Position numbers and translations under genes: made by a program
The notes under the pieces: model-generated
What the model saw: the letters and a program-made list of their open reading frames with translations, nothing else
Told to the model about the DNA's origin: nothing
Database searches by the model: none
DNA from: an uncultured Chloroflexia bacterium
GTDB lineage: Bacteria; Chloroflexota; Limnocylindria; Limnocylindrales; CSP1-4
Direction of reading: 5' to 3'
Assembly (NCBI GenBank): GCA_963748625.1
Contig: CAVVJT010000007.1
Span: 1,120,001-1,184,000, forward strand
Length of the DNA stretch: 64,000 bases
Shown: one piece after another, positions 5,605 to 43,779 of the stretch
Layout of the letters: the number at the start of each line of letters is the position of its first letter
How positions within the stretch are numbered: the stretch's first letter is position 1

Positions 5605-6762
5605 GTGGTGGCAGCGGCGAAGGTGCGGGAGCTCCGGGGCGACGAGTTGGCGGACTGGGACGCCCACGCGGTTGATGCGCCGGGTGGCCACGTCTACCAG
5701 TCCCGGGCGTGGGCGGACCATCGCGCGGCCAACGGCTGGCGCCCGCGGTTCATGGCCATGGGGGATGCGCGCGCGCTCGTGCTCGTTCGACCCTGGCCGG
5801 GCCTGCCAGGTGGCTCCGGATACATCCCCAGGGGTCCGGTAGGACCGATCGTGCCGTGGTCGTATGCGGGGGCGCCGGCCGCCGACGGCGCCGGACGAGC
5901 GGTAGGCGAGGCGCTCGCCGCAGTCACGTCGCTGCTGGCGGCCGAGGGCCTCGACGTGCTCGCGGCGGATCCCGAGGTGGCTGAGGGCAACGAGGCCTAT
6001 GGGCGCATCCTCCTGAACAGTGGGTTCCGCGGTATCCCGGAGATCCAGCCGTCGCGTCACAGGCTGGCGCTGCGCCTGACCGGGGTTGACGAGGGCGCCG
6101 CCTTCGGTGGGGTCACCAAGGCGACCCGTCAGCGCATCCGGCAAGCGGAGCGCGAGGGCGTGGTCGTCGTGCGTCATGACACGACGCTCCAGGATCGGGA
6201 TGGCTTTGTCCGTCCCGCCTCGGGCTCGGGCAACGCGCTGGAACAGTTCCACGCACTGATGATCGCGACCGGGCAGCGCCGCGGGTTCGACTTCCCCGGC
6301 CCGGGCGAGTACCTGGCCTGGTGGCATCGGGCCCTGGAAGCGGGACACCTGGTGCATCTCGAGGCGCGCGATGGCGGGCCGGCCGGCGAGGTGCTCGGGG
6401 GGCTCACGTTGTACCGCCACGGCGCACGGCTCTCGACCCAGCATGCCGCCGATCGCGCGGACCGGCGACGCGATCGCCCGGGCACGATGCACCTGCTCCG
6501 ATGGCGCGCGATCCAACTCGCCATCGCCGAGGGCCGTGCCGAGATGGACCTCGGCGGCGTCGACATCGCGGGGGCCCGCCGGATCCCCACTCCGGGCGAG
6601 TCCACCTACGGACTGTACGAGCACAAGCGCTCGTTGGGGGCTGCGTGGGTCGCGCTGGCGGGTGCGCACGAGCGCGTCGAGCGACCCTGGCGGTACGCGG
6701 CAGGCCGGGCTGCGGCACGCGCGGTGCGGACGCTCGGACCGGTGAGACGCGGGAGCCGGTAG
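5605..6762 (+). CDS. FemAB/FemX-like peptidyltransferase (GNAT fold)
   Basis: HVYQSRAW, YIPRGPV, TRQRIRQAEREGV, DLGG, GLYEHKRSLG resemble FemABX motifs; GTG start lies 6 nt after TATCGT. Confidence 0.75.
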   Translation: MVAAAKVRELRGDELADWDAHAVDAPGGHVYQSRAWADHRAANGWRPRFMAMGDARALVLVRPWPGLPGGSGYIPRGPVGPIVPWSYAGAPAADGAGRAVGEALAAVTSLLAAEGLDVLAADPEVAEGNEAYGRILLNSGFRGIPEIQPSRHRLALRLTGVDEGAAFGGVTKATRQRIRQAEREGVVVVRHDTTLQDRDGFVRPASGSGNALEQFHALMIATGQRRGFDFPGPGEYLAWWHRALEAGHLVHLEARDGGPAGEVLGGLTLYRHGARLSTQHAADRADRRRDRPGTMHLLRWRAIQLAIAEGRAEMDLGGVDIAGARRIPTPGESTYGLYEHKRSLGAAWVALAGAHERVERPWRYAAGRAAARAVRTLGPVRRGSR

Positions 6763-17551: not shown

Positions 17552-17583
17552 CCGGGACCCGGGGTGCCCGGGACCCGGGGTGC
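17552..17583. repeat. 16-bp direct tandem duplication
   Basis: CCGGGACCCGGGGTGC x2. Confidence 0.8.
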
Positions 17584-17692
17584 CCGCGACCAGCGATGCG
17601 GGCCCGGAGTGCCTGCATCAGTGCCTCGGACCCGGAACCCGGACCTCCATGCGAAACTGACCCCCCACACGCTCACCCGAGGAGACGCCGCC

Positions 17693-18154
17693 ATGGGCGA
17701 GACCATCGCCCAGAACCGAAGAGCCCGCCACGACTACAGCATCGAGGACACCTTCGAGGCGGGTATCGTGCTGCGCGGCACCGAGATCAAGAGTGTCCGC
17801 GCCCACAAGGTGAGCCTGGCCGATGCGTACGCGCGGATCGAGCGCGACGAGGCCTGGATCATCGGCCTGCACATCGCTCCGTGGGAATCGACGGACCTCC
17901 GCTTCAACCACGAGCCCAAGCGCGCGCGGAAGCTGCTCCTCCACCGGCACGAGATCGACGAGCTGTTGGGCAAGACGAAGGCGAAGGGCCTCACGATCGT
18001 GCCCCTCGCGCTCTATATCAACGACCGCGGCAGGGCGAAGATGAACCTCGGGCTGGCCAAAGGCAAGCAGACGTGGGACCGCCGCCGCGAGATCGCCGAA
18101 CGGGACGCCAAGCGGGACATGGCACGCCAGGTCGCGGACGCCCGGCGGCGCTAG
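17693..18154 (+). CDS. smpB: SsrA-binding protein SmpB
   Basis: IAQNRRARHDY, FEAGIVLRGTEIKS, RKLLLHRHEI, LAKGKQTWDRR. Confidence 0.97.
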   Translation: MGETIAQNRRARHDYSIEDTFEAGIVLRGTEIKSVRAHKVSLADAYARIERDEAWIIGLHIAPWESTDLRFNHEPKRARKLLLHRHEIDELLGKTKAKGLTIVPLALYINDRGRAKMNLGLAKGKQTWDRRREIAERDAKRDMARQVADARRR

Positions 18155-18177: not shown

Positions 18178-19230
18178 ATGCGGCTCGCGCGGATGATCCA
18201 GGCGGTCGATGTGCACGCGGGCGGCGAGCCCGGCCGGGTCGTGGTCGGCGGTGTCCTGGACGTTCCGGGAGCCACCATGTTCGAGAAGGCGCAGCACCTC
18301 GAGCACCACGCCGACACGCTCCGCAAGATGATGCTCAACGAGCCGCGCGGCTATCCGGCCCTCTGCGCCAACGTCATCCTCCCGCCGACCCACCCCGATG
18401 CCGACGCCGGCTACGTGATCATGGAGCACGTCGAATACCCGGGGATGTCCGGGTCGAACACGATCTGCGTCGCCACTGCGCTGCTCGAGACGGGCATGCT
18501 GCCGATGACCGAGCCCGTGACCGACATCACGCTCGAGGCGCCGGCCGGCCTCATCCGCATCCGGGCGACCTGCGAGAACGGCAAGGTCACCGGGGTCACG
18601 TTCCGCAACGTGCCGGCCTTCGCCACCCACCTCGATGCCGTCGTCGAGGTACCGAACCTGGGCACGGTCACGGTGGATGTCGCCTACGGGGGCATGTTCC
18701 ACGTCATCGCGGACGCGGAGGCCCTCGGCTTCCGCATCACGCCCGACGAGGGCGCCGACATCACCCGCATCACCGAGATGATCAAGGCCGCCGCCGCCGA
18801 GCAGCTCCCGGTCGTCCACCCGGACCAGCCCGGGTTCGCCGGCATCACCATCGGCCAGGTGAGCGGCCCGCCGCACGACCCGCGCAACTCGTGGCGCAAT
18901 GCCACCACGGTGTCCACCCGCGCCTTCGCATGGGACAACCCTTCGACCTGGACCGGCGTCCTGGACCGGTCCCCGTGCGGCACGGGCACCTGCGCCAAGA
19001 TGGCCGTCCTGCACGCGAAGGGCGAGCTCAAGGTCGGTGAGGACTTCCGCCACGAGAGCATCATCGGCTCGGTGTTCACGGGCCGCCTCCTCGAGGAGAC
19101 GCGCGTCGGCCAGTACGCCGCCGTCGTGCCCGAGATCACCGGAACGGGCTGGATCTATGCGCTCAGCTCGTACGTGGTGGACCCGACCGACCCGTTCCCC
19201 GAAGGCTTCACCGTCGGCGACATCTGGTAG
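18178..19230 (+). CDS. Proline racemase / hydroxyproline epimerase family protein (Ser/Cys dyad)
   Basis: DVHAGGEPGR, NEPRG, MSGSN in place of MCGH, DRSPCGTGT, DPFPEGF. Confidence 0.9.
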   Translation: MRLARMIQAVDVHAGGEPGRVVVGGVLDVPGATMFEKAQHLEHHADTLRKMMLNEPRGYPALCANVILPPTHPDADAGYVIMEHVEYPGMSGSNTICVATALLETGMLPMTEPVTDITLEAPAGLIRIRATCENGKVTGVTFRNVPAFATHLDAVVEVPNLGTVTVDVAYGGMFHVIADAEALGFRITPDEGADITRITEMIKAAAAEQLPVVHPDQPGFAGITIGQVSGPPHDPRNSWRNATTVSTRAFAWDNPSTWTGVLDRSPCGTGTCAKMAVLHAKGELKVGEDFRHESIIGSVFTGRLLEETRVGQYAAVVPEITGTGWIYALSSYVVDPTDPFPEGFTVGDIW

Positions 19231-19438
19231 CGACCTCCACAGTGGCGCGGCTCGCGACCGAGACCCCCGGATGGACGCGGAGTCCATGGATCCGCGGTTC
19301 GGGCTGCGCTCGGATAGCCGTCAGGCCCCGTGCCGGCCGATTCGTGGACGGCGCGTCCCGGAATCCGCCGCCAGGAGGCAACCGGCGGGTCGGCGCCGAG
19401 GGTTCATGGACGCAGCGCCCATGCGACGCGACGGAGCC

Positions 19439-19494
19439 CCTACCCGTCGAGGCCTACCCGTCGAGGCCTACCCGTCGAGGCCTACCCGTCGAGG
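19439..19494. repeat. 14-bp tandem repeat x4 containing the stop codon of the GNAT gene
   Basis: CCTACCCGTCGAGG x4, exact. Confidence 0.9.
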
Positions 19495-20132
19495 CCGATA
19501 AGCCTCCGCACCGGGCCGAGCCCATCGACCGAGATCGGCTCGCCGCGGACGAGACCGTCAGGCGTCAGCACCAGCTGCTGGTTCTCGGCGAGCTCGCCAC
19601 GCCGGACCATGCGAATACGCCCGTTGTCCACGTAGCCCACCTTCCGGCTCACCGCGAGCGAGGCCGGGTTGTCCAGGAACGCGCCAGAGTGCACGACCTC
19701 CGCGCCGAGGTGGTCGAACAGGAACGCGCAGATCGCCTGGCGCATCGCGGTCCCGATTCCGTGGCCCTGGTGCGCAGCTCCCAGCCACGAGCCGGTCTCC
19801 CCGGTCCGCGTGACCAGGTAGTCGCGCGTGAAGAACCCCTGTGTCCCAACGACGACGCCCTCCCAGCGCACGACGAAGTCCAGCGTCCAGCGCTCCCGGG
19901 AGAACGACGCGCGGTTTCCCCAGTGGTACTGCGCGAACCGCAGCGGCAGCTCGTCGGCGGGGGCGTCCGTCCAGGGCACCGCGAACGGCATCCGCTCCGG
20001 CGGGTGGATCCCGGCCAACGCGAGACCGACCAGCGCCGCGATGTCGTCATCCGCGATGCCGCGCAGCTCCAGCGGCCCCGCGGTGATCCGAAGCCCGAGC
20101 ACCGGGAACAGGTCGGTCGGCGACAAGCCCAT
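19482..20132 (-). CDS. RimJ/RimL-type GNAT acyltransferase (Rv0802c-like)
   Basis: LRITAGPLELR, PFAVPW, ETGSWLG, HQGHGIGTAMR, DNPASLAVSRKVGY. Confidence 0.85.
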   Translation of the reverse strand: MGLSPTDLFPVLGLRITAGPLELRGIADDDIAALVGLALAGIHPPERMPFAVPWTDAPADELPLRFAQYHWGNRASFSRERWTLDFVVRWEGVVVGTQGFFTRDYLVTRTGETGSWLGAAHQGHGIGTAMRQAICAFLFDHLGAEVVHSGAFLDNPASLAVSRKVGYVDNGRIRMVRRGELAENQQLVLTPDGLVRGEPISVDGLGPVRRLIGLDG

Positions 20133-20140
20133 GACGAGGC

Positions 20141-21859
20141 CTACCGCAGCAGGTACCGGCGGCTCAGCGGCACCTCGCTCACGGCCTCTGCCGCCAGCGC
20201 CCGCCCGCCCAGGGACACCGCGCCCGTCCGCAGGTCGATGTCCACCGGCGCCACCGCCCGGTTCGCGACCAGCGACGACCGCGTGACCCCGCGCATCCCT
20301 TCGGCCACCACCAGCTCCCGCCGCGTCCCAAGCCACCGCGCCAGCGCCTCGCGATCCACCCCCGACGCCACGAACATCACCGCCGACTTCGGCGCCGCCG
20401 TGGACACCCCGCCCCAGTCCGCCCGGTAGCGGGTCGGCTCCGACCGCTCGACGGTCGAGTTGCCCTCGCCCAGCGCGCCCCAGGCCGGGAACCCGCCCTT
20501 GAAGATCCACTCTGGCTTGACGCCGAAGAACGCGGGCGACCACAGCACGATGTCGGCGAGGCGCCCCACCGCGAGCGTTCCCACGTGCGCCGCCACACCG
20601 TGCGTGATCGCGGGCTCGATGGTGATCTTGGCCAGGTACTGCAGCACGCGCGCCGTGTCGTCGCGGTCGTCCGGGTCGCGCAGGCCGGGATCGTCCGGCA
20701 GGCCGGGGACGCCGTACGCCCGCTCGGACCTGCGCCATGCCTTCATGACATGGGCCAGCTGGAACGTGCGCCTGAACGTCTCGCCGATACGCCCCATCCC
20801 CTGCGAGTCCGAATTGACGATCTGGATGGCGCCCAGCTCGTGCAGGGGCCCCTCGGCCGCCATCCGCGCTTCCAGCACCCGCTCCCGGACCAGCGCGACG
20901 TCCTCGGGCACCGCGAACGAGAGCCCGTGGTTCAGCACGACCATTGGCACGTGCTCCACCGCGCAGTGCACCCCGAACGGCAGCGTGGGCGTCGTGGACG
21001 AGCACAGGATCGACGGCTCCCGGACCAGTCCCAGCAGGTCCGGCACGTGGCCGCCACCCGTCCCCTCCACGTGGTAGGCATGGACCGTCCGCCCGGCGAT
21101 CGCCGCGACCGTGTCCTCGAGCTCCGCCGACTCGTGCAGCCCGTCGGTGTGGAGGCTCACGGACACGTCGCGGGCGTCGGCGTAGCGCAGGACATGGTCG
21201 ATGATGTCCGGGTAGGCGCCATTGTCCTCGTGGATCTTGAAGCCGATCGCGCCGACCTCCACCATCGCGTCGAGGTGGGAGGATTCGGCGGCCCGGGCAC
21301 CCGCCTGCATGCCGATGTTGATCGGCCAGGCCTCGAGGCCGGCCAGGACTCGCTCCATCGCGAACGGCGGCTCCTCGAAGCCCGCCGTGATGAAGGTGGT
21401 GACGCCGCCCGCCAGCGCCGGGGCCAGGAGCTCCGGGTCGATGGTATGGACGTGCGAATCCACGGCGCCCGGTGTCGCGATCAGCCCGTACGCCATGTAC
21501 GACTTCGTGTGCGGACCCACGACCAGGTCGATGCCGTCGCTGATGGCCGGGCTGCCCGACCGCCCGATGCCCGCGATGCGGCCGTCCTTGATGCCGATGT
21601 CGGCCTTGACCACCCCGATGACGGGGTCGATGACGAGCGCACCGCACAGGAGGACATCCAGCTCGGACGGGCCCGACGCCTCGTCCCACTGGGCCTGGCG
21701 GGAGCGGAGGTTCTTGGCGTAGCCCCAGATGGGCTCGTCGCCGGGGGAGGATCGGTCTTCGGCCACGCGGACCCACAGGTCGGTGTCGCCCAGCCGGATG
21801 CGGTCTCCGGTGGTGGGGCCATAGCGGGCCCGGTACTCGGCGCCGGAGATGCGGGTCAT
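20141..21859 (-). CDS. ureC: Urease alpha subunit-like amidohydrolase (divergent)
   Basis: YGPTTGDRIRLGDTDL, DSHVH, FKIHED, HTD, HAYHVEG, SDSQGMGR, PAFFGVKP. Confidence 0.9.
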   Translation of the reverse strand: MTRISGAEYRARYGPTTGDRIRLGDTDLWVRVAEDRSSPGDEPIWGYAKNLRSRQAQWDEASGPSELDVLLCGALVIDPVIGVVKADIGIKDGRIAGIGRSGSPAISDGIDLVVGPHTKSYMAYGLIATPGAVDSHVHTIDPELLAPALAGGVTTFITAGFEEPPFAMERVLAGLEAWPINIGMQAGARAAESSHLDAMVEVGAIGFKIHEDNGAYPDIIDHVLRYADARDVSVSLHTDGLHESAELEDTVAAIAGRTVHAYHVEGTGGGHVPDLLGLVREPSILCSSTTPTLPFGVHCAVEHVPMVVLNHGLSFAVPEDVALVRERVLEARMAAEGPLHELGAIQIVNSDSQGMGRIGETFRRTFQLAHVMKAWRRSERAYGVPGLPDDPGLRDPDDRDDTARVLQYLAKITIEPAITHGVAAHVGTLAVGRLADIVLWSPAFFGVKPEWIFKGGFPAWGALGEGNSTVERSEPTRYRADWGGVSTAAPKSAVMFVASGVDREALARWLGTRRELVVAEGMRGVTRSSLVANRAVAPVDIDLRTGAVSLGGRALAAEAVSEVPLSRRYLLR

Positions 21860-22476
21860 GCGCCTGCCCCCGCGTCGGTGCCGGCGCCGATCGTCCCTGC
21901 GTAGCGCACCAGCCGCACCGTCTTGGTCTCGCCGGGATCCCAGCCGACGTACGCCCCCGACGGGATGTCCAACCGGAAGCCCCGGGCCGCATCCCGGTCG
22001 AACTCGAGCCGGTCGTTGGCCTGGTGGAACGGGTAGTGCGAGGAGATGCGGACAAGTCGCTGCGACCGCGACGTGACCTCCAGGACGAGGGTGTCACGGC
22101 CCACGTTGATCTCACGGTCGCCGTCGTCGCCCATCACGAGCGCGCCCGGCCCGAAGGGATCAGCCGGCTGGCCACGGTCGAGCGGGTCGAGGAGCACGAT
22201 GAACCGCGCACCGTCACCCATGAGGACCTCCAGGCGCACCTCCGAGAGGAGCGCACGCACGCCCGGCAGCACCTCGTGCGGCTCCACGGCAGAGCGCCCG
22301 ACCGCCTCCACCTGCTCGTACGTCGCGCCGGCGCGGGCGGCCTCGAGCATGGCGTCGCAGATGACGGCGACAGCTTCGGGATGGTTGAGCAGAAGCCCGG
22401 CTGTCCGATGGCGGCGGGCGAGCTCGGCGGCGGCGAACAGTTGGAGGCGCTCCTCCTCCCACGGGATCATGCGCAT
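21856..22476 (-). CDS. ureAB: Fused urease gamma/beta subunit-like protein
   Basis: Gamma part: EEERL..LARR..LNHPEAVA; beta part: SSHYPF, LEFDR, GFRLDIPSG, PGETKTVRLV. Confidence 0.88.
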   Translation of the reverse strand: MRMIPWEEERLQLFAAAELARRHRTAGLLLNHPEAVAVICDAMLEAARAGATYEQVEAVGRSAVEPHEVLPGVRALLSEVRLEVLMGDGARFIVLLDPLDRGQPADPFGPGALVMGDDGDREINVGRDTLVLEVTSRSQRLVRISSHYPFHQANDRLEFDRDAARGFRLDIPSGAYVGWDPGETKTVRLVRYAGTIGAGTDAGAGA

Positions 22477-22557
22477 TGCGGCATGGTAGCGAAGGGCCCG
22501 GGAACCGGGGGTGCGCCGCGACCGTCCGGGCGGTGCGTCCACCGCCGGGAGAACCAC

Positions 22558-23910
22558 ATGCGCCGCTCCATCGTTCTCATCCTGACCGCCGCGCTGGTGG
22601 CCGGCTGTTCCGGTGCCACGCCGACGATGGGGCCTGCCTCCCCGACGACGGGGCCGACCGCGCAGCCCACGGGCCCGGCGGAGCCGACCGCGCAGCCAAC
22701 CACCCCAGGCGACGACGGCATCGAGCTCGCCAAGGCCGACGTCGCGCGGTTGAGCACCACATCGGATGACGCCTCGGCCGCCGGCACCGCCGTCAACGCC
22801 TTCGGGCTCGACCTGTACAAGCGCATCGTCGCTGCCGACCCCGACGCAAACGCCGTCTTCTCGCCCGCCTCGATCGCGCTCGCGCTGGCGATGGCGCGCG
22901 CCGGGGCGAAGGGCGACACGGCCGCCGAGATGGACGCCGTCATGCACAACCTCGGCACCGATGCGAACGCCGCCTGGGTCGCCGCCCTGGACGCCTCGCT
23001 GAACACGAAGACCGCGACCTTCAAGGACGCCATGGGGGAGCCGGCCAAGGTGACCCTGCGGTCGGTCAACGCCCCCTTCGCCCAGCGCGACTACCCATTG
23101 GAGACCGTGTATCTCGAGGCGCTCGCGGAGCGCTTCGAGGCTGGGCTGCGCCAGGTGGACTTCGTCGGCGACCCGGAGGCCTCGCGTGGCGCGATCAACG
23201 CCTGGGTCAACGACCAGACCGAGGCCCGCATCCCGGAGCTCCTGGCCGAGGGGACCATCGACGAGGCCACGCGCCTCGTGCTCGTCAACGCGATCTACCT
23301 CAAGGCCCCGTGGAACGAGCCGTTCTTCGAGGAGGCCACCCGAGACGAGCCGTTCACCCGCCTCGACGGCTCGCAGGCGACCGTCCCGATGATGCACGGG
23401 GGCGGCTATCACCCCTACGCCGAGGGCGACGGCTGGCAGGCCGTCCAGCTGGGCTACGCCGGCGACGGCCTCGCGATGCTGGTGATCGTCCCCGAGGACC
23501 TAGTGGCGTTCGAGGCGACGCTCGACGGGGCGGCCCTGGACCGGATCGCTGCCTCGATGGACACCGTCGACGTGAGCGTCGGGCTGCCCAGGTTCAGCGT
23601 CGAGACGGCGCTGGACCTCGGTGACACCCTTGCTGCCCTGGGCATGCCCGCGGCCTTCGACCCCGGTTCCGCCGACTTCTCGGGTATGACGACGGCCGAC
23701 CGCCTGTACATCGGCAAGGTCGTCCACCAGGCGAACATCGACGTGGATGAGAAGGGGACCGAAGCCGCAGCTGCCACCGCGGTGGCGATGGCGGCCGGCG
23801 CCGCGCCAGGCGAGCCGAAGGTGCTCCTGGCCGACCAGCCGTTCCTGTACGCACTGCGCGACGTGGACAGCGGCGCGATCGTGTTCCTGGGCCGCGTCAC
23901 CCAGCCGTAG
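22558..23910 (+). CDS. Serpin family lipoprotein
   Basis: Lipobox LVAGC; FSPASI, INAWV..QT..RI, LVNAIYLKAPW; hinge DEKGTEAAAAT; DQPFLY and FLGRV. Confidence 0.93.
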   Translation: MRRSIVLILTAALVAGCSGATPTMGPASPTTGPTAQPTGPAEPTAQPTTPGDDGIELAKADVARLSTTSDDASAAGTAVNAFGLDLYKRIVAADPDANAVFSPASIALALAMARAGAKGDTAAEMDAVMHNLGTDANAAWVAALDASLNTKTATFKDAMGEPAKVTLRSVNAPFAQRDYPLETVYLEALAERFEAGLRQVDFVGDPEASRGAINAWVNDQTEARIPELLAEGTIDEATRLVLVNAIYLKAPWNEPFFEEATRDEPFTRLDGSQATVPMMHGGGYHPYAEGDGWQAVQLGYAGDGLAMLVIVPEDLVAFEATLDGAALDRIAASMDTVDVSVGLPRFSVETALDLGDTLAALGMPAAFDPGSADFSGMTTADRLYIGKVVHQANIDVDEKGTEAAAATAVAMAAGAAPGEPKVLLADQPFLYALRDVDSGAIVFLGRVTQP

Positions 23911-25000: not shown

Positions 25001-25984
25001 TCAGGCTGGGTTCAGCCTCGTCACCGATGATCGGGCCAGCCGCTCTTCGAACCGCTTCGCAGCTGCGTCGAGCTTGTCCAGGTGGTCGGCCAGCCGCTGG
25101 CGGGCCTCTTCGGCGGCGGCATCGAGCCCGGTCAGCTCGAAGATGCCCCAGTGCTTCAACACCGGCATGAGCACCTCGTCGCGGTGGACCCGCAGGTCGT
25201 AGATGCCGGCCTTCGCGATGTCGGCCGCCTTGCGCATGAAGTTCTGGATCCCGGCGCCTGGCATCTCGAACCCGAGGACCTCGTCCACGATCGCCCGGAC
25301 CGCCGCGGACGGCTCGATCAGCAGGGCCGCCTTGAGGATGTCGCGGTAGAACACCATGTGCAGGTTCTCGTCGGCCGCGATCCGGACCATGATCTTGTCC
25401 GCCACCGGGTCATCCGAGTAGCGCCCGGTGTTGCGGTGCGAGATCCGGGTGGCAAGCTCCTGGAACGCCACGTACGCGAGGCCGTGGAGCGTGTCGGGGT
25501 TGTTCCGGTCGTAGCCCTGCTGGAGCTGCGCCATGCGGCCTCGCTCCAGGAGCGTCGGGTCGAAGTTCCGGGTGACCACGAGGTAGTCCCGCAGGACGAT
25601 CGCGTGCCGGCCCTCCTCGGCGGTCCAGCGGCCAACCCAGTTGAGCCATGCGCCATCGCCCTTGCCGAACATCCCGTGGATCAGGCGGTGATAGCTGGGC
25701 AGGTTGTCCTCGGTCAGGAGGCCGATCTCGAACGCCGTCTGCGCAACGCCGGTGAGCCGCGGCTGGTCCGGGGTCCAGGGCTCCTTGTCGAAGTCACGCC
25801 CCAGCCGGTAGGGGATGTACTCGTGGGGGAACCACTCCTGCGTCACCTTGAGGTGCCGGTCCAGGAGGCGGCCGGCCTCGGGCTCGAGCTCGGCGAGCAG
25901 GCGCCGATCGAGCGCTGGGACGTCGGACGGGTGGATGGGGTCGGCGGGGACCTGGAGCGCGTCGGGCGCGATCTCGTCGGGCAT
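25001..25984 (-). CDS. Acyl-ACP desaturase (ferritin-like diiron, DesA-like)
   Basis: WFPHEYIP, TEDNLPSYH, WTAEEGRH, YVAFQELAT, IAADENLH. Confidence 0.92.
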   Translation of the reverse strand: MPDEIAPDALQVPADPIHPSDVPALDRRLLAELEPEAGRLLDRHLKVTQEWFPHEYIPYRLGRDFDKEPWTPDQPRLTGVAQTAFEIGLLTEDNLPSYHRLIHGMFGKGDGAWLNWVGRWTAEEGRHAIVLRDYLVVTRNFDPTLLERGRMAQLQQGYDRNNPDTLHGLAYVAFQELATRISHRNTGRYSDDPVADKIMVRIAADENLHMVFYRDILKAALLIEPSAAVRAIVDEVLGFEMPGAGIQNFMRKAADIAKAGIYDLRVHRDEVLMPVLKHWGIFELTGLDAAAEEARQRLADHLDKLDAAAKRFEERLARSSVTRLNPA

Positions 25985-26369
25985 CGGAGTCACCAAGGTG
26001 GGGGGTGGGTGGGACTCGGGCCCCTCGCGCCCGGTTGGCGCAGCGTACGTGCGCCGCCCCCCGTGCCTCGTGAACTTCGGTGCAGGACTGCAGCGACCGG
26101 CCGCGTCCATCGGCATGACCGGTGCTCCGCCGTCTCCATGTCAACGGATCCCCGCATCAGGGCGCCGAACCGGCCTGTATGCGGGCCACTGTTGCAGCCC
26201 CGGCAACGGATCCCCGCAAACGGGCACCAGGGACCCGTGCTTGTGCCCTTTCGTTGGTTTCCACGCACGTCACCGCCCAGCTCGGCCCCGCGCTCGCGCC
26301 CAAGCCCCGCCCTGCACCCCATCGACCATGGTGCTAGCATTCGCGTCCCGAACAGCGGTTCGGTCCTGT

Positions 26370-26740
26370 GGGGATGCGTGGTTTCGACAGGGCTTGGCTG
26401 CTTGGAGACGCGAGCCGAGGTGCCGTCAGGCCTCGTTAAACAGGCGGCAAACAGAAGTAACTGCCAACAAGCAGCCTGCTCTCGCCCTCGCCGCTTAGGC
26501 GGTAAGGTGAGCATGGAAGCGGCCTCCCCTTCGCGGGCCGTGGAAGTGTCACTCAGCGAAGGTGCAACCCCGGTGAGGTCACGTAGCCGGGAGCCAAGCC
26601 CGATCTAGGGACACGGGAATGGACCGGACGGAAGCCTGCCGATGGGCGTCCGCCGGTTGACGAAAATCATCGGACACGCTCGTAGTGGATCCAGGCGAAG
26701 GGTTCTGGACGGGGAGTTCGACTCTCCCCCATCTCCACCA
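26370..26740 (+). ncRNA. ssrA: tmRNA; tag ORF 26463-26498 encodes ANKQPALALAA
   Basis: 5' GGGGATG pairs with 3' CATCTCC-ACCA with a G3:U pair; TTCGAC near the 5' end; T-arm GGGAGTTCGACTCTCCC; tag ends ALAA-stop. Confidence 0.96.
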
Positions 26741-32772: not shown

Positions 32773-35121
32773 TCAGGCCGCCCGGGCCACGATCTCGGCC
32801 GCCGCGGGGTGCTCGTCGCCGAGCGCCAGGTAGAGCTCCTCCTCCTGGGCCATGTGCAGGCGCAGGATGGCATCGAGGCCGTAGAGGACGCGCCGGAGGT
32901 CGGTCAGGTCCTCCACGCCGGGACCCTCCTCGGGGATCTCCTTGACCAGCCGGTCAACGAACCGGATCAGGTGGAAGATCTCGGTGTGGGTGCGGTGGAG
33001 TGCAGCGGTGACGTCGTCGTTGCCCACGACGTGGCTCAGGTACGGGTAGACCTCGCGGTCCTCCTGCTCCTCGTGCGGGATGAGGACCTCGAGCAGGAAG
33101 GTGCGCGTCTTCTCCAGCTCGACCTTCGCGTCCGCGGGCGGGATCGTGCCCAGCCGGTCGGCCAGCGGACGGATGCGCGCGATGGACGGGGCGAGGTCGC
33201 GGTGCTCCTCGCGCAGGCGCGCGGACAGCTCGGTCCAGCCGGGCACCTTCACCTGCTTCTCGAGACCGCCGCCCAGCGCCCGCAGCGCGTTGAGGATGAC
33301 GATGACGTCGATCACCTCCTGGATGATCGCGCCGTAGACGGGCGGCAGGACCCCCGTTGTCGCGACCAGCATCGCCACGATCGACAGGCCCATGCCGACG
33401 ATGACGCTCTGGAGCGCGATCGTCCGTGAACGCCGGGCGATGCGGATGGCCTCCGGCAGCCGGTCGAGGCGGTCCACGGTGATCACGATGTCCGCGGCCT
33501 CGGAGCTCGCGGTCGCGCCGCGGGCACCCATGGCCACGCCGACGTCGGCTGTCGCCAGGGCGGGGGCGTCGTTGATGCCGTCGCCAACCATGACCAGCGT
33601 GCCCTCGGCCTCGGCCTTCTCCTCGGCCACCGCATCGACCTTGTCCGCGGGCGTGCGCTCGGCCAGGACCGCATCCACGCCGATGGCGGCGGCCACCATG
33701 TCCGCCACGCCGTAGTGATCGCCGGTGACCATGACGATGCGCCGGATCCCTGCCCGGCGTAGCGCGCGGATCACGCGCGGCGTCTCGGGGCGGATCGGGT
33801 CGTCGAGGACCAGGGCGCCCACGAGCACGCCATCCGCTCCGACGTAGACGCCGGTCGCCCCCTCGAGATTGACCCGGCGCCGCACATCACGGGCCCACGG
33901 CGGCAGGCCGGCGCCGCCGGTTGCGAAGTCGACCGTGCCCACCAGCACCGCACGCCCGTCCACACGGCCGGTGATGCCCGCGCCCGGGACCTCCTCCGCA
34001 CCATCGGGGAGTGCCAGGGCCACGGAGCGCTCACGGGCACCGCTGACGATGGAGGCGGCGAGGACGTGCGGTGAGACCTGCTCCAGGGATGCGGCGAGGC
34101 GCAGGACCTCCTCGGCCGTGCTGTCGGGTGCCGCGACCACGTCGGCCAGGTGCGGGCGACCGGCGGTGAGCGTGCCGGTCTTGTCGAACAGGAGCACCCG
34201 GGCGCGGGCGATGGCCTCGAGCGCGCCCCCACCCTTGACGATGATCCCGCGCTTCGCCGAGCGGCTGATGCCCGCCACGATCGCGATCGGCGCAGCGAGG
34301 AGCAGGGGACACGGCGTCGCCACCACGAGCACGGACAGGGCGCGCACGGGATCCCCGGACACGATCCAGGCGAAGCCCGCGATGCCGAGCGCGAGCGGCA
34401 CGAAGAGAAGGGCATACCGGTCGGCGAGGCGGACGAACGGCGCCTTCGAGGACTGGGCCTCCTCGACCAGGCGCACGATGCCGGCATAGGTCGAGTGCTC
34501 CGCGGTGGCCGTCGCAACCAGGTCGAAGGGCGGGCCGGCGTTCACGGTGCCGGAGTTGACGGGGTCGCCGGCCTCGCGGGTCATCAGGCGTGACTCGCCG
34601 GTCAGGGCTGACTCGTCGAGGGTGGACGGGGTCCCCACCAGGGAGCCGTCCACGGGCACCACCTCGCCCGGCTTGACAAGGATCCGGTCGCCAACGGCCA
34701 CCTCGCCCACGGGCCGGTCCACGATGCCACCGTCCTCGTGGCGGTGCACGACCCGCGGCGCGCGCGAGATCAGGGCCGAGAGCTCGCGATGCGCGCGCCC
34801 CTCGGCGTACCGCTCGAGCCAGTCACCCGTGGCGAGCATCACCGCGATCACCGCTGCGGTGAGCGCCTCACCCAGGGCGAGCGCACCGCCGATCGCCAGC
34901 ACCGCGATCACGTCCACGCCGGCCTCCTTCTTGAGGAGGTCCGCGATGATGTTGCCCAGGAGCCACACGCCCACGATCGCCGCTGGGATCGTCCACACCC
35001 AGTACGCCAGCGCGTCCTGGCCGGCGGCCATGGCGATCAGGCCCAGCACGAGCCCAGCCAGGGTCAGCGGGAGGAGGACGCGCTCGGCGAGCGCATTGAG
35101 CGGGGCGAGGATGGTGCGCAT
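32773..35121 (-). CDS. Heavy-metal P1B-5-type ATPase with C-terminal hemerythrin domain
   Basis: TGES, TPCP, DKTGTLT, GDGINDAP, QEVID; His/Glu tail EH..HEEQE..H..HMAQEE. Confidence 0.92.
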   Translation of the reverse strand: MRTILAPLNALAERVLLPLTLAGLVLGLIAMAAGQDALAYWVWTIPAAIVGVWLLGNIIADLLKKEAGVDVIAVLAIGGALALGEALTAAVIAVMLATGDWLERYAEGRAHRELSALISRAPRVVHRHEDGGIVDRPVGEVAVGDRILVKPGEVVPVDGSLVGTPSTLDESALTGESRLMTREAGDPVNSGTVNAGPPFDLVATATAEHSTYAGIVRLVEEAQSSKAPFVRLADRYALLFVPLALGIAGFAWIVSGDPVRALSVLVVATPCPLLLAAPIAIVAGISRSAKRGIIVKGGGALEAIARARVLLFDKTGTLTAGRPHLADVVAAPDSTAEEVLRLAASLEQVSPHVLAASIVSGARERSVALALPDGAEEVPGAGITGRVDGRAVLVGTVDFATGGAGLPPWARDVRRRVNLEGATGVYVGADGVLVGALVLDDPIRPETPRVIRALRRAGIRRIVMVTGDHYGVADMVAAAIGVDAVLAERTPADKVDAVAEEKAEAEGTLVMVGDGINDAPALATADVGVAMGARGATASSEAADIVITVDRLDRLPEAIRIARRSRTIALQSVIVGMGLSIVAMLVATTGVLPPVYGAIIQEVIDVIVILNALRALGGGLEKQVKVPGWTELSARLREEHRDLAPSIARIRPLADRLGTIPPADAKVELEKTRTFLLEVLIPHEEQEDREVYPYLSHVVGNDDVTAALHRTHTEIFHLIRFVDRLVKEIPEEGPGVEDLTDLRRVLYGLDAILRLHMAQEEELYLALGDEHPAAAEIVARAA

Positions 35122-38601: not shown

Positions 38602-39633
38602 CTATTGGTTGCGGGGCAGCAGCACCACGCGCCGGTTCGGCTCCTCGCCGATGGACTGTGTGGCGACACCGGGGTTGTCGCGGAGGGCGAGGTGGATCCA
38701 GCGGCGCTCGAGGGCCGGCATCGGCTCGAGCTGGAGCATCTTGCCCGTCTCGACGACGCGGTCGCCCGCGCGGGTTGCGAGGTCCACGAGCTGGCGCTCG
38801 CGGCGGCCACGGTAGTCCTCGACGTCCACCAGGACCCGGGTCCACTGGCCGGTGTGGCGCGACAGCATCAGGTTCACGAGGTGCTGGAGCGCCGACAGCC
38901 GCTCGCCCTTGCGCCCGATGAGGGCACCGAGGGCCTCGCGGTCCGCGCCCTCGCCAACGACGTTGAGGCGGCTTGTCTCGCCCTCGCGGATCTCGACGAG
39001 CACACCCTCGAACCCGAGGTGGCCCATCAGGGTCTCAAGGATCTCCTTGCCCGCGGCGAGTGCCTCGGGTGTCGCCTCGGCGGCCTCGAGCTCGGCGCGC
39101 TCCATGGCGAGTGAGCCGCGAGCCGTCGCGACGGCGGCGACTTCGGCAGCGGAGAGTTCCGAGCCGCCGGGCGCCGGGCGGGCGCCGGGGCGGGCGCGGT
39201 CATCACGGCGCGGGGGCCGGTCATCGCCGCGCGGGGGGCGGTCATCACGGCGCGGGGGGCGGTCATCACGCGCGGGCCGGTCGCCGTAGCCCCCACGGTC
39301 GTCCCGGCGCGGGGGGCGGTCGCCGTAGCCACCCTGGCCGCGGTCACCGCCACGATCCCGGTCGCCGTACTCGCGTCGCGGCCGGTCCTCGCGCGGAGGC
39401 GGGGCGGGCAGTGGCTTCGACTCGGCGGCCTCACGCTTGGGTGCGGCACCGCCGAGGGCGCTGCGGGGTGCAGCCACGATCCGCGCGGGCTCGGCGCCCA
39501 TGCCCAGGACGCCGCGGCTGCCTGGGGTGAGGATCTCGAAATCGAGGTCGGCAAGGCCGACGGAGAAGCTGTCGCAGGCGACCTTGATGGCCTCTTCGAC
39601 GGACTTCCCGGTGAATTCCTGGTATTCGCTCAT
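38602..39633 (-). CDS. jag: Jag/EloR (KhpB) RNA-binding protein
   Basis: EFTGKSVEEAI, LIGRKGERLSALQ (KH), ERRWIH (R3H), SIGEEPNRRV. Confidence 0.93.
   Translation of the reverse strand: MSEYQEFTGKSVEEAIKVACDSFSVGLADLDFEILTPGSRGVLGMGAEPARIVAAPRSALGGAAPKREAAESKPLPAPPPREDRPRREYGDRDRGGDRGQGGYGDRPPRRDDRGGYGDRPARDDRPPRRDDRPPRGDDRPPRRDDRARPGARPAPGGSELSAAEVAAVATARGSLAMERAELEAAEATPEALAAGKEILETLMGHLGFEGVLVEIREGETSRLNVVGEGADREALGALIGRKGERLSALQHLVNLMLSRHTGQWTRVLVDVEDYRGRRERQLVDLATRAGDRVVETGKMLQLEPMPALERRWIHLALRDNPGVATQSIGEEPNRRVVLLPRNQ
39190..39330 (-). repeat. 18-bp RDDRPP-encoding repeats in the Jag linker
   Basis: GGGGGCGGTCATC-type units, 4-5 imperfect copies, in frame. Confidence 0.7.
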
Positions 39634-39634
39634 G

Positions 39635-40819
39635 TCAGCGGCGTCTCCCTCGTCGGGCGTTCTGCTTGCTTCGATTGGGTCTGATGGTCCCCTGGGCCGA
39701 GAGGTCCCGGTCGAGGGCTGCTGAGCGCTCCGCCGCGCTCTTGGCATCGCTGGAGTCCGTGAACTTGGGCTCCGGCATGGTGACGTGGTAGCGCGGCCGG
39801 TACTCCGCCGCGCGCCTGGGGTACCAGCCGAACAGCGGGAAGGTCCCGCCGAAGCCCACCACCAGGAACTGCTGGAAGACCTGGATCACGGACGAGAAGA
39901 TCCAGTAGAGGAAGAGGCCGGCCGGCAGCATGCCGCCGTAGATCAGCGAGATGAAGGGCAGGAAGTAGGCCATCTGCCGCTGCACCTTGACGTTGGGGTC
40001 ATCCGCGGTGCGGGGATCAAGCGGCGCGAGCGCCTGGCGCGAAGCGACCAGCTGCACGAGCGCCGACATGATCGCGAGGATGCTGATCCCGAACCCGAGG
40101 ATCGAGAGGCCCGTGGTCTGCGGCTCCGGGATGCTCCAGTTGATGCCGAAGGCCCACGGGTCGAGGCATGGGTTGATCACGTGTCCGGCGGCGTTGTAGA
40201 TGGGCGCCGCATCGCACGTGATGCCGAAGATCTCGGCGAAGTTGATGCCGAAGACCTGCAGCATCGGCGTGATGTCGTAGTTGCTCAGGCCCTGGCTGAT
40301 GACCGAGTACATCGGGATCAGGAGGCCCATCGTGAGCAGGGCGGGGAGGCAGCCGCCGGCCTGGTTGATGCCGCGCTGCTTGTAGAACTCCGACACCGCC
40401 TGCTGCGACTTGACCCGGTCGCCCTTGTACTTGGCCTGGATGGCCTTCACCTCGGGCAGGAGCAGCTGCGTCCTGCGCGTGGACACCAGCTGCTTGGTCG
40501 TGATGGGCGTGGTCAGCAGCTTGATGACGACGGTCAGCAGGATGATCGCGATCGCGATGTTCCCGGTCAACGTGTCGAAGCCCACCAGGACGATGAACAG
40601 CGTCTGGAAGACCGGCGTGAACAGCCACGCGATCGTGTCGATCGGGTTGGCGCCTGGGGTCGCCGGGGCCAGCGGCAGCTGCGGGGTGGGGGTGGGCGCC
40701 GGTGGCTGCGTGGCGCCGGGCGCGAGGGCCTGGCCGCAGGCCGAGACGACCAGCGCGATCACCAGCACGAACAGCAGGGGCGCCAGCCGGACCAGGGTTT
40801 CCTTGAGGCGGGTCGTCAC
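39635..40819 (-). CDS. yidC: Membrane protein insertase YidC
   Basis: AIILLTVVIKL, IQAKYK, GGCLP, PAGLFLYW; yidD-yidC-jag synteny. Confidence 0.93.
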   Translation of the reverse strand: MTTRLKETLVRLAPLLFVLVIALVVSACGQALAPGATQPPAPTPTPQLPLAPATPGANPIDTIAWLFTPVFQTLFIVLVGFDTLTGNIAIAIILLTVVIKLLTTPITTKQLVSTRRTQLLLPEVKAIQAKYKGDRVKSQQAVSEFYKQRGINQAGGCLPALLTMGLLIPMYSVISQGLSNYDITPMLQVFGINFAEIFGITCDAAPIYNAAGHVINPCLDPWAFGINWSIPEPQTTGLSILGFGISILAIMSALVQLVASRQALAPLDPRTADDPNVKVQRQMAYFLPFISLIYGGMLPAGLFLYWIFSSVIQVFQQFLVVGFGGTFPLFGWYPRRAAEYRPRYHVTMPEPKFTDSSDAKSAAERSAALDRDLSAQGTIRPNRSKQNARRGRRR

Positions 40820-40836
40820 GCGCGTCTTCTATCCAT

Positions 40837-41055
40837 TCACGGAACCGGGTCGTAGCCGCCCGGGTTCCAGGGGTGGCACCGGCCGATGCGCTTGGCTCCC
40901 ATCCAGCTGCCGCGCAACAGGCCGTATTTCTGGATCGCCTGCTCGGTGTAGCGGCTGCACGACGGCTCGAAGCGGCACGATGACGGGACGAACGCGAACA
41001 CGAGGCGGTAGAGGCGGATGAGCCTCACCCCGATCCAGACGCCGATCCCCTTCAC
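40837..41055 (-). CDS. yidD: Membrane protein insertion efficiency factor YidD
   Basis: [24 protein letters not shown]. Confidence 0.95.
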
Positions 41056-41387
41056 GTTTCGCTCGAGCCTCCGAGCACACCTCCCGAACGGAGGATCCGT
41101 CGGATTGCGCCAGCCAGTGCGTCCTGGTCGGCTTCGACAAGCGCCGGCCGGGCGATGATGAGGACGTCCCAGCCTGGCTGGAACGAGGGCGCCATCACCC
41201 TGAGCACCTCACGGATCCGGCGCCGGGCTCGGTTCCGGACCACGGCTCCTCCGAGCCGCTTGCCGGTCGCCAGCCCGAACCGGGTCTGGTCAAGGTCTGT
41301 CCGGACGAAACGTCCGACCAGCAGGGGGTGGCTTCTCGCGATGCCGCCCTCCGCCAGCCTGGCGAAATCGCCTGGGCGGGAGAGCAT
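41052..41387 (-). CDS. rnpA: Ribonuclease P protein component
   Basis: [25 protein letters not shown] (RNR motif); synteny. Confidence 0.92.
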
Positions 41388-41422
41388 GACGAGCCGCAGC
41401 GGGTTGTGACTGCGCTCGCCGG

Positions 41423-41560
41423 TCAGATGGTCAGCTTCTGCCGGCCCTTGATGCGGCGCGCTGCGAGAATGCGGCGACCGCCCGTGGTCTTCATACGGGC
41501 GCGAAACCCGTGTTCCTTCGCGCGGTGGCGCTTCTTGGGCTGAAACGTCGGCTTGCCCAT
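41423..41560 (-). CDS. rpmH: 50S ribosomal protein L34 (not in the ORF track)
   Basis: Manual translation: [45 protein letters not shown]. Confidence 0.96.
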
Positions 41561-41672
41561 CGGGACTGTCCGTGATCCTCTCCATCAGCCTTGGGACCCG
41601 GGAACTCCGACCCCTAGAGGCACGCAACGCGCCGGGCGCCCGAGAGCGCGACGGCGCGTGTTCGTCGGCCGG

Positions 41673-41702
41673 ATCATATGGCCGCCTTCACAGGGGTGTC
41701 AA
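41673..41702 (-). promoter_or_regulatory. rpmH promoter
   Basis: Minus-strand TTGACA-18 nt-TATGAT. Confidence 0.7.
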
Positions 41703-41820
41703 ACCTCGCGCGCGAGGGCACGTGCGCCGCCTGTCAGGCTGCGGCGCTCCAGCGCTGGGCGCCGCACCCGCCAGAGAGGCTTGGGCCACCCCGCGGGACG
41801 CTGTCCCTGGCTCCTTCGTA

Positions 41821-41837
41821 ATACCCCCTGGGGGTAT
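41821..41837. promoter_or_regulatory. Perfect palindrome resembling a CsoR/RcnR-family operator
   Basis: ATACCCCC-T-GGGGGTAT. Confidence 0.5.
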
Positions 41838-41849
41838 ATCGGATTCGCC

Positions 41850-41879
41850 TTGCAGGGCCGGTCAGCCGGGGTGTATTGT
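41850..41879 (+). promoter_or_regulatory. Probable dnaA promoter
   Basis: TTGCAG-18 nt-TATTGT. Confidence 0.5.
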
Positions 41880-42043
41880 TCGGCGGCCCTGAGGCGCCGG
41901 GACCGCCGGGAACCCCCGTCGGGGGACACGAAACGGCTCGGCAAGGCGTCGGCAACACGCCCGTCTCGCGGTTCCCCTGGAACCAGGTCCGCGGTCGGCC
42001 GTACCCATCGAGAACCCGATTAGATCAGGACCCGATCGAACGA

Positions 42044-43408
42044 ATGGACGCGAAGCAGGTCTGGCGCGCGGCCCTTGGGGAGCTGCAGGTTTCCCTATCG
42101 CCCGCCAACTATGAGACCTGGCTTCGTGACACCCATCTGGTCGAGGTGGATGACCAGCGGTTCAAGATCGCCGTTCCCAACGGGTTCGCCAAGGACTGGC
42201 TCGAGACCCGCTACCGCTCCCTGATCTCCCAGACGCTGGCCCGCGTCGTCGGCTACAGCGTCCAGGTCGAGTTCATCGTGGCGGCAGCCACGGATGCCCA
42301 GGAGCAGGCGGCGGCTGTCGCTGCCCAGCCCGTGCGCCTGGAGCCCACGCGGGTCGGCGCGCCCGAGGGCCCCGCCGCCGGCGCCACGTACCTCAATGCG
42401 CGGTACACCTTCTCCAACTTCATCGTCGGGTCGGCCAACCGCCTCGCGCACGCGGCGTCGCTATCGGTCGCCGAGCGGCCCGGCCACGCCTACAACCCGC
42501 TGTTCCTCTACGGCGGCGTGGGCCTCGGCAAGACCCACCTGATGCACGCCATCGGCAACGCGGTCGCGGCCAAGTTCCCGCGCAAGCGAGTGGTCTACGC
42601 GACGTCCGAGAAGTTCACCAACGAGTTCATCACCTCCATCCAGCAGGGCCGGATCGACGAGTTCCGGGCCCGATACCGCCGGATCGACATCCTGCTCATC
42701 GATGACATCCAGTTCATCGCGGACAAGGAGCGGACGCAGGAGGAGTTCTTCCACACGTTCAACGCGATCCACGAGGACGGCAAGCAGATCGTCCTCTCCT
42801 CGGACCGGCCGCCGAAGGCGATCCTCACCCTGGAGGAGCGGCTCCGGTCGCGCTTCGAGTGGGGCCTCATCGCAGACCTGACGGCGCCCGACCTCGAGAC
42901 CCGGATCGCGATCCTGCGCGCCAAGGCAGAGGACCAGGCGACCCCGATCGGGGCGGACGTGGTCGAGTTCATTGCCCGCAAGGTGGTCTCCAACATCCGG
43001 GAGCTCGAGGGCGCCCTCAACCGGATCATGGCCTACGCGAACATGAACGCGAGCCCGGTCACCATCGAGCTGGCCCAGGCGGTCCTCTCGAACGTCCTCT
43101 ACAACCCCAAGAAGCGGCAGGTCACCCCGGAACGCATCGCGCAGACGGTGTCCGAGTACTACGGCGTGGGCCTCGATGCCCTGCGCGGCCAGAAGCGCGA
43201 GAGGACGATCGTGATGCCGCGCCAGATCGCGATGTTCCTGATGCGCGAGGAGACGGACGTCTCGCTGCTCCGCATCGGCGCGGAGCTGGGCGGTCGGGAC
43301 CACTCGACGGTGCTGCACGCCTGCGACAAGATCAACCGGGAGATGCAGGTCAACGACGAGCTGCGCCGCGAGGTCGCCGCCGTCCGGGAGCTCATCTACA
43401 CCGAGTGA
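42044..43408 (+). CDS. dnaA: Chromosomal replication initiator DnaA
   Basis: YNPLFLYGGVGLGKTHL, LLIDDIQF, QEEFFHTFN, SNIRELEGAL, RDHSTVLHA. Confidence 0.98.
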   Translation: MDAKQVWRAALGELQVSLSPANYETWLRDTHLVEVDDQRFKIAVPNGFAKDWLETRYRSLISQTLARVVGYSVQVEFIVAAATDAQEQAAAVAAQPVRLEPTRVGAPEGPAAGATYLNARYTFSNFIVGSANRLAHAASLSVAERPGHAYNPLFLYGGVGLGKTHLMHAIGNAVAAKFPRKRVVYATSEKFTNEFITSIQQGRIDEFRARYRRIDILLIDDIQFIADKERTQEEFFHTFNAIHEDGKQIVLSSDRPPKAILTLEERLRSRFEWGLIADLTAPDLETRIAILRAKAEDQATPIGADVVEFIARKVVSNIRELEGALNRIMAYANMNASPVTIELAQAVLSNVLYNPKKRQVTPERIAQTVSEYYGVGLDALRGQKRERTIVMPRQIAMFLMREETDVSLLRIGAELGGRDHSTVLHACDKINREMQVNDELRREVAAVRELIYTE

Positions 43409-43779
43409 TGCTGCACCCGGCGGCAGTGCCGGGTCGCGCCCTCCGTGCTTCGTCATCCGGGTCTGGTATCCGGTTTGGCGTTCACCCGCGCCCCTTCTGC
43501 GCCTTGCAGATGCCGCCGGGCGATCCCGGGCCGTCCCGAGCCAGACGCCTCTCGCCGGGCCGTGCGGCACGCCATGAGCCACTTGGTGTGGCAGACAGTC
43601 CCCGGACTGGGAGGTGGCGCGCCGGCGGGTGAAGACTCGGCTGGGGGTCAAGGGAGCCAGGGGTGTGCGGCGGGTGTACAGACAACCCGGGGATGGCTGC
43701 ACGAGAGGAGTTGGACGGGTTCGCTGGTGACTCCCGGTGGGGTCAGGGCGGCCCAAGACGGCACGGCGGCCATGCGCTC

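Follow-up and report, generated by a model that had tools for sequence, protein, structure and literature searches.

The stretch of DNA analysed here, called the window, comprises 64,000 nucleotides from the genome of an uncultured soil Chloroflexota bacterium of the order Limnocylindrales, and it carries a minus-strand operon that encodes homologues of the three urease domains. The first gene, ureAB (21856–22476), encodes a protein of 206 amino acids (aa) in which the gamma and beta domains are fused, as seen from the Pfam matches to Urease_gamma (86.6 bits, residues 1–98) and Urease_beta (87.1 bits, residues 110–195). It is followed by ureC (20141–21859), whose product of 572 aa is a homologue of the urease alpha subunit with Urease_alpha and Amidohydro_1 domains (Pfam), and by a gene (19482–20132) for a GNAT N-acyltransferase of 216 aa, a homologue of Rv0802c. 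The stop codon of ureAB and the start codon of ureC overlap as ATGA, ureC is translationally coupled to ureAB, and 8 nt separate the TAG of ureC from the ATG of the GNAT gene; the G+C content is about 70%. An initial annotation of this DNA had given the span 19482–22476, the gamma/beta fusion and the 8-nt spacing; its coordinates and strand are right, and the sequence agrees with it on the other points. What this enzyme, which has the metal site of a urease and an altered substrate pocket, may act on is the subject of this report.

Residues of UreC were compared through a HMMER alignment to Helicobacter pylori UreB (1E9Z_B) and through MAFFT alignments with library representatives. The protein aligns over its full length to solved ureases, with E-values from 1e-117 to 2e-129, and the match to 1E9Z_B (E 2.1e-129) pairs residues 1–568 with residues 1–565. 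All solved structures matched are canonical ureases, and none is closer for either of the two clades with a shortened loop. The six metal ligands named by the initial annotation are kept in both alignments as His136, His138, Lys208, His237, His263 and Asp351 (numbering of the window protein), which gives in the alignment columns the HxH motif, the carbamylatable Lys, the two His and the Asp of the binuclear centre. The catalytic and polarising residues of Sporosarcina pasteurii urease (His222, Asp224, His323 and Arg339) have their counterparts in His210 and Asp212 of the KIHED motif, the flap residue His311, and Arg327; Gly269 of the GGGH motif is kept as well. The assignment of S. pasteurii residue numbers to these motifs is presumptive in part, and the Klebsiella aerogenes numbering of the initial annotation is taken as given.

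Around this core the pocket has been rebuilt. The loop that follows the GVTT motif reads TAGF..EEP and has 17 residues against 28 in the canonical representative P0129, and this deletion of 11 residues falls in the loop that bears the backbone carbonyl of Ala170 in S. pasteurii urease, for which another carbonyl may stand in. Canonical HEDWG is replaced by HEDNG, MVCHH by VLNHG, and SDSQAMG by SDSQGMG, which puts a Gly at the position of Ala366. In a residue census of the class with a 10–11-residue deletion, which has 59 members among 75 full-length sequences, the positions His, His, Lys, His, Asp, His, His, Gly and flap His are invariant, the Arg and a further Asp are each present in 58 members, and the Gly at the Ala366 position is found in all 59. 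The shortened TAGF loop and the SDSQGMG motif are thus as the initial annotation read them, while two of its other observations stand in part. In the flap, the Cys has become Asn and the second His has become Gly, but the catalytic His311 is kept, and the second His is missing from the true Yersinia urease (6YL3) as well. HEDNG is present in the window protein, but its Asn is confined to the closest relatives (5 of the 59 members), most of the class having Tyr (39) or Trp (13) at that position. The second Glu of the EEP motif is invariant in the alignment, and one may speculate that it suits a cationic substituent.

The roles of these residues in S. pasteurii urease are described in the available portion of PMC7433671, a review of the urease mechanism. 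There, the Ni(2)-bound nitrogen of urea is held by the backbone carbonyls of Ala170 and Ala366, its distal nitrogen by Gly280 and Ala366 and its oxygen by His222, and the mobile flap bears Cys322 and His323, the atoms and residues named in urea binding being Ala170 O, Ala366 O and C-beta, Gly280 O, His222 and His323 (PMC7433671). Going by these roles, the conserved parts of UreC would serve the carbonyl and the nucleophile, and the rebuilt parts would face both nitrogens.

Profile scores and phylogeny place UreC apart from the canonical ureases. Against the equivalog TIGR01792 it scores 517.6 bits, under the cut-off of 680, whereas canonical representatives reach 924–981 bits, and against NF009685 it scores 518 bits, under the cut-off of 907; the subfamily model NF009686 is matched at 598.1 bits, over its cut-off of 354. 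The ureAB product scores 193.8 bits against NF009671, the model named 'bifunctional gamma/beta', under its cut-off of 243. Thirty-five sequences, chosen without the ligand-less clusters and most near-duplicates, were placed in a maximum-likelihood tree (LG+G4, 1000 ultrafast bootstraps, root unknown), which recovers the canonical ureases as a clade with 100/100 support. Apart from them, the window protein falls in a clade of 17 rows (100/100) from Limnocylindrales and Actinomycetota, which we label TAGF-EEP, a name of our own and not that of a curated family. The 10 Chloroflexota rows of this clade form a group (100/100) that branches from among the Actinomycetota-type rows. The Streptomyces-type ure(AB)C proteins make up a third clade (100/99), beside the canonical and TAGF-EEP ones. 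A single clade of the window protein and the canonical ureases is rejected by the approximately unbiased (AU) test (p 2.7e-59), for a grouping that was chosen after a first quick tree. The window protein has every mark of the TAGF-EEP clade, namely its place in the tree, the fused gamma/beta gene upstream, the 10–11-residue deletion and the Gly at the Ala366 position. Judged from its sequence, UreC is not a canonical urease, since it falls under the equivalog cut-offs and belongs to a separate 100/100 clade, and the initial annotation, which had read it as a urease paralogue, is borne out by the tree.

The branch is not small. At least 120 clusters at 90% identity, among the matches listed, have at least 77% identity to the window UreC. 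Representatives at 50% identity include several full-length clusters at 38–57% identity whose loops are shortened by 4 or by 10–11 residues and which keep nearly all the metal ligands (P0133 reads HQH). Also seen were full-length homologues of urease alpha without several of the metal ligands and without the carbamylated Lys (P0144, P0180, P0189, P0198, P0205, P0226, P0258 and P0263), which are possible pseudo-ureases; the four of them included in the quick tree, P0144, P0180, P0189 and P0226, group there with the canonical clade.

The initial annotation had found no ureD, ureE, ureF, ureG or urea transporter gene in the window, and a Pfam scan of 59 window proteins gave none of the accessory or urea-transport families either. 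The same picture extends to the genome (4.63 Mb in 10 contigs, 98.3% complete, 7.7% contaminated), which has a single urease-alpha-like gene and in which whole-genome searches found neither UreG nor UreD, UreE not having been searched for on its own; the best match to the CobW/HypB/UreG family reaches only 30.7 bits. UreF gave one partial Pfam match (32–33 bits, profile positions 55–132 of 151) on an open reading frame (ORF) of 125 aa about 130 kb from the operon, on the minus strand (G000:C7:1312798–1313037; 1375–1752 in locus L005). As the match is partial and falls on an ORF that overlaps others, far from the operon, it is probably spurious, either a relic or a chance match. The accessory set of UreD, UreF, UreG and UreE was thus not recovered. 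No NiCoT transporter was found in the genome, which has one gene of the CbiM/NikM family for cobalt or nickel uptake.

Related genomes extend this pattern, although the counts come from genomes of varying incompleteness and mutual kinship and describe a pattern, not independent tests. None of 61 genus genomes has a UreG above the cut-off, and one of them has a 48-bit match. UreG is above the cut-off in one of 30 genomes that carry a member of the clade (15 Chloroflexota, 13 of the Actinomycetota-type group and 2 outliers). The maturation system has been lost across the lineage, whose genomes are without UreD, UreF and UreG. The ureC-like gene itself is present in 20 of 24 genus genomes, where 15 copies are full length (78–83% identity), three are split (G001 and G018 among them) and two are short remnants of 87 aa (G003) and 75 aa (G010), and no such gene was found in 16 genomes of the sister family. 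Because 20 of the 24 genomes carry it, 15 of them at full length and at that identity, the gene reads as maintained by purifying selection.

For the gene neighbourhoods, genes were called in the window region and in 80 public loci with our own GC3-based caller, and neighbours were clustered and named by Pfam and NCBIfam. An antisense ORF (cluster 'c10') sometimes masked ureAB in this caller, and ureAB was therefore counted by tblastn, which showed that in 78 of 80 related loci a fused gamma/beta homologue precedes ureC, the remaining two ending at a contig edge. A gene of the agmatine-deiminase family (PAD_porph), co-directional with the pair, adjoins it in 13 of 15 Streptomyces-type loci, most of which contain TetR and NCS1 permease genes too, and in 5 of 15 TAGF-EEP loci from outside the Chloroflexota (L055, L056, L057, L059 and L062). 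These neighbours score 302–339 bits, under the cut-off of 381.8 of the agmatine deiminase model TIGR03380. Three further loci (L060, L063 and L076) have a PotA/PotD/permease set in line with the pair, with PotA at 389 bits (cut-off 355.6), and a protein of the Amidohydro_3 family (about 545 aa) is encoded beside the pair in 10 loci. In one Chloroflexota metagenome-assembled genome (L054, 3071–5094, plus strand), genes for ornithine carbamoyltransferase (OTC; TIGR00658, 405.8 bits) and carbamate kinase (TIGR00746, 372.1 bits), both over their cut-offs, immediately precede ureAB-ureC on the same strand, an arrangement that links the enzyme to carbamate or citrulline metabolism.

The commonest same-strand neighbour in Limnocylindrales is a transporter gene of the major facilitator superfamily (MFS; 16 loci). 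A cyclic di-AMP (c-di-AMP) riboswitch (RF00379, 57–76 bits) precedes it in 15 of these loci, the sixteenth ending at a contig edge. The riboswitch lies at 5962–6090 on the plus strand in L031 and is also found in 14 further loci (L025, L027, L035, L037, L038, L039, L044, L045, L050, L053, L061, L072, L080 and L081), and in many of them ureAB-ureC starts 34–60 nt after the MFS gene. This riboswitch-MFS unit has been lost in the window's own lineage, where a serpin gene stands in its place. Two short-loop ure(AB)C pairs on plasmids, one of Streptomyces anulatus (L110, 5273–7653) and one of Embleya (L111, 5276–7662), are in line with nonribosomal peptide synthetase adenylation and condensation genes and a phosphotransferase gene, and look as if they were part of a natural-product gene cluster.

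The reading that we favour, with about even confidence, is that the product of ureAB-ureC is catalytically competent, belongs to a deep and uncharacterised branch of the urease family and would cleave an N-monosubstituted urea. Its binuclear centre would be assembled without GTPase-driven delivery of nickel, possibly with another metal, and bridging-hydroxide chemistry of the urease type would cut the terminal carbamoyl group off a ureido-amine to give the amine, ammonia and CO2. In the wider clade, the best candidate substrate would be N-carbamoylputrescine or a close analogue, either made by the adjacent agmatine-deiminase-like enzyme or imported. A ureido-amine is put forward because two independent clades adjoin agmatine-deiminase-like genes in different gene orders, and because of the importers of the polyamine type. 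The GNAT would stand outside this mechanism.

That level of confidence applies to the clade, and the reading is weaker for the window's own genome, in which no PAD_porph protein was found and in which the substrate would therefore have to be imported or made another way. Several further points weigh against it. The evidence from partner genes comes from relatives at 55–61% or 43–45% identity and not from the window's organism, PAD_porph is found in none of the 15 Chloroflexota genomes of the clade (against 6 of the 13 others), and the usual partner in Limnocylindrales, the riboswitch-controlled MFS transporter, says nothing specific to polyamines. The deiminase-like neighbours are under their cut-off, so that their own substrate is uncertain. 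No AguB (N-carbamoylputrescine amidohydrolase) is over its cut-off in five Streptomyces-type genomes, but four of the five have AguB-like nitrilase-family proteins at 243–264 bits, and a replacement for AguB is therefore not obviously needed. Finally, all the side chains that touch urea are retained, so urea could still be a substrate. Of the proposal in the initial annotation that the enzyme acts on a bulkier substituted urea, carbamate or amide, what persists is that the protein is not canonical, that its genomes are without the nickel-insertion helpers, and that the operon partners of its relatives (deiminase-like, PotABCD-like, OTC with carbamate kinase, Amidohydro_3) lend the substituted urea indirect support; for this genome, without a deiminase, urea itself remains a candidate.

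A broader form of the reading is put forward more tentatively. The TAGF-EEP enzymes, and perhaps all short-loop homologues, may form a large, unrecognised family of chaperone-free ureidohydrolases that act on N-carbamoyl-amines such as N-carbamoylputrescine and citrulline and complete the release of nitrogen from guanidino compounds to amines beside deiminases. In soil Limnocylindrales they would be expressed together with a transporter under the c-di-AMP riboswitch, and 'ureC' matches there would not report ureolysis.

The strongest alternative, a serious one although less probable than the reading favoured here, is a true urease (urea amidohydrolase, EC 3.5.1.5) that matures without UreDEFG and salvages urea from the cell's own agmatinase or from soil, the changes in loop and flap reflecting another metal or self-assembly. 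There are precedents for such maturation, as the urease of Bacillus subtilis works without accessory genes and UreA2B2 of Helicobacter mustelae is an iron urease that needs no accessory proteins. The retained ligands and urea-contacting side chains favour this alternative, as do the status of ureC as the sole urease-like gene of a nearly complete genome, the failure to find urea carboxylase in that genome, the absence of the deiminase from the Chloroflexota genomes of the clade, and the CbiM/NikM-type uptake component. The genome also has an agmatinase over its equivalog cut-off (193.6 against 174.3 bits), which would be a source of urea. Agmatinase was examined for co-variation with the urease-like gene and gave no signal, being over its cut-off in 38 of 41 genomes, the sister family included, with or without a urease-like gene, while none of the 16 sister-family genomes carries such a gene. 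Near-universal agmatinase without co-variation neither helps nor excludes a true urease, although the missing co-variation can be set against it. Also against it, UrtA was not found in the window's genome and is over its cut-off in one of the 30 clade genomes (the one that also has UreG), and no urea transporter family occurs among the annotated genes of the 81 loci inspected. A true urease is also at odds with the deletion of the loop that carries the Ala170 carbonyl and with the replacement of Ala366 by Gly throughout the class, given the roles of these residues in the part of PMC7433671 cited above, and with the position of its relatives in agmatine-deiminase or polyamine-transport operons.

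The initial annotation had further suggested a coupled pathway, in which the urease-fold enzyme frees an amine that the downstream GNAT acylates. The GNAT belongs to the Rv0802c-like proteins, as judged by its match to the structure 2VZY_A (E 5.4e-47, residues 9–213) and its Acetyltransf_3 domain (Pfam, 55.2 bits), and it is probably co-transcribed with ureAB-ureC here. The 8-nt spacing suggests co-transcription, the same layout recurs in two genomes of the genus (G012 and G021), and eight metagenome contigs of the nearest subclade seem to be common to the match tables of UreC and the GNAT, an unconfirmed hint. Elsewhere the association breaks down. By coordinates, ureC has no GNAT gene after it in 22 of 24 genus genomes; a GNAT homologue follows ureC in one of 11 genus loci and one of 80 public loci, which are the same contig, and it is thus missing from 79 of the 80. 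Most relatives have a convergent gene of the proline-racemase family directly after ureC, and in the window such a gene lies downstream, convergent with the GNAT gene. Relatives of the GNAT at 64–87% identity are widespread in Limnocylindrales and in many Actinobacteria with no link to urease. The only other GNAT gene that follows a ureC (L041) was considered as support for a partnership and ruled out, as it encodes an ArsN1-type enzyme of arsinothricin resistance. The GNAT gene is a local, lineage-specific insertion and not a conserved pathway partner, and the coupled pathway is very unlikely.

Least probable of all is a decaying or non-catalytic relic, to which the fragments or split copies in some genus members (G003, G010, G001 and G018) and the existence of ligand-losing urease-homologue clades might point, but which is contradicted by the intact reading frame, by catalytic positions that are invariant or nearly so in 59 members from two phyla, by the 78–83% identity within the genus and by the translational coupling to ureAB.

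Upstream of the operon, an intergenic region of 81 bp (22477–22557) separates ureAB from a divergent plus-strand gene (22558–23910, ATG at 22558) that encodes a serpin with a lipoprotein-like signal peptide, and it is presumed to be the promoter region of the operon. A scan of positions 19000–23000 found no sigma-70-like site or terminator, and no Rfam family reached its gathering score beside ureAB in the window. A serpin homologue occupies the same position in 5 of 11 genus loci. The operon is flanked by the genes for tmRNA (132 bits, 26370–26740, plus strand) and SmpB (17564–18151, plus strand), and the order tmRNA, ureAB-ureC, SmpB is kept in many Limnocylindrales loci. A borderline match to the small RNA family ASdes (41.5 bits, gathering score 40) occurs at 25549–25615 on the plus strand, antisense to a fatty-acid desaturase gene (25004–26110, minus strand); in mycobacteria, too, ASdes RNA lies antisense to a desaturase gene. 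Farther away, a P-type ATPase with a C-terminal hemerythrin domain is encoded at 32776–35121 on the minus strand, and the region 38605–46506 resembles a chromosomal origin, with jag, yidC and rnpA on the minus strand and then dnaA, dnaN and a recF-like gene on the plus strand.

Urease figures in textbooks as the nickel enzyme, and studies of soils and waters commonly take ureC as an indicator of ureolysis. The branch described here is abundant, spans two phyla and is annotated everywhere as 'urease subunit alpha', yet it is without the maturation system and without two of the elements that hold urea. Should its members cleave substituted ureas, the urease fold would gain a new class of reaction, a gap in the catabolism of agmatine and guanidino compounds in Actinomycetota would be closed, and inferences on the nitrogen cycle drawn from metagenomes would be corrected. 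Should the enzyme be a true urease, it would be one whose binuclear site is built without UreDEFG, possibly with another metal.

Among known systems, the canonical UreABC enzymes of H. pylori (1E9Z), K. aerogenes (1FWJ/2KAU) and S. pasteurii (4UBP) share with the window proteins the gamma, beta and alpha domains, the metal ligands, the carbamylatable Lys, the His and Asp of KIHED, the flap His, the Arg and the Asp. The window protein differs from them in the 11-residue loop deletion, in Gly for Ala366, in Asn for the flap Cys and Gly for the second flap His, in its scores under the equivalog cut-offs, in a genome where UreD and UreG were not found, and in its separate clade. UreA2B2 of H. mustelae (3QGA) and UreABC of B. 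subtilis likewise mature without UreDEFG, and chain C of 3QGA matches the window UreC at 412 bits. These two are true ureases whose loop and pocket are canonical, whereas the window protein has a rebuilt pocket and belongs to another clade.

Closer in organisation are the ure(AB)C genes of Streptomyces, of the type of S. coelicolor SCO5525–SCO5526, which share the two-gene layout, the gamma/beta fusion and the lack of adjacent accessory genes, as far as the accessible portions of the sources describe them (PMC2492869; PMC5489568; PMC3293853), and which also share the Gly in place of Ala366 and changes in the flap. They differ in having 43–45% identity to the window protein, a place in the other short-loop clade and a deletion of 4 and not 11 residues, and in 13 of 15 of their loci they are followed by agmatine-deiminase-like and TetR genes, with the NCS1 permease gene upstream. 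Their genomes also hold canonical ureases with helper genes (PMC3293853, in the part available). In the same part of that paper, SCO5527 is listed among the homologues of the Pseudomonas arginine-decarboxylase (agmatine) pathway, and SCO5525–SCO5526 are listed simply as urea genes, with no connection drawn to SCO5527 (PMC3293853). The initial annotation had called the enzyme undescribed, which has to be narrowed, since this type of cluster is known from Streptomyces and annotated as urease, although the portions of the three papers at hand report no assay of it (PMC5489568; PMC2492869; PMC3293853). In the literature searched, with subscription journals and supplements beyond reach, no assay of enzymes of the ure(AB)C type or of Limnocylindrales was found, nor any mention of the clade with the 11-residue deletion, of the deiminase linkage or of the Limnocylindrales enzymes. 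In function, the nearest comparison is AguB, which, in the part of PMC9397018 that was available, carries out on the ureido-amine released by agmatine deiminase the same reaction as is proposed here. Its nitrilase fold is unrelated to that of urease, and it works with a Cys-Glu-Lys triad in place of a binuclear metal centre.

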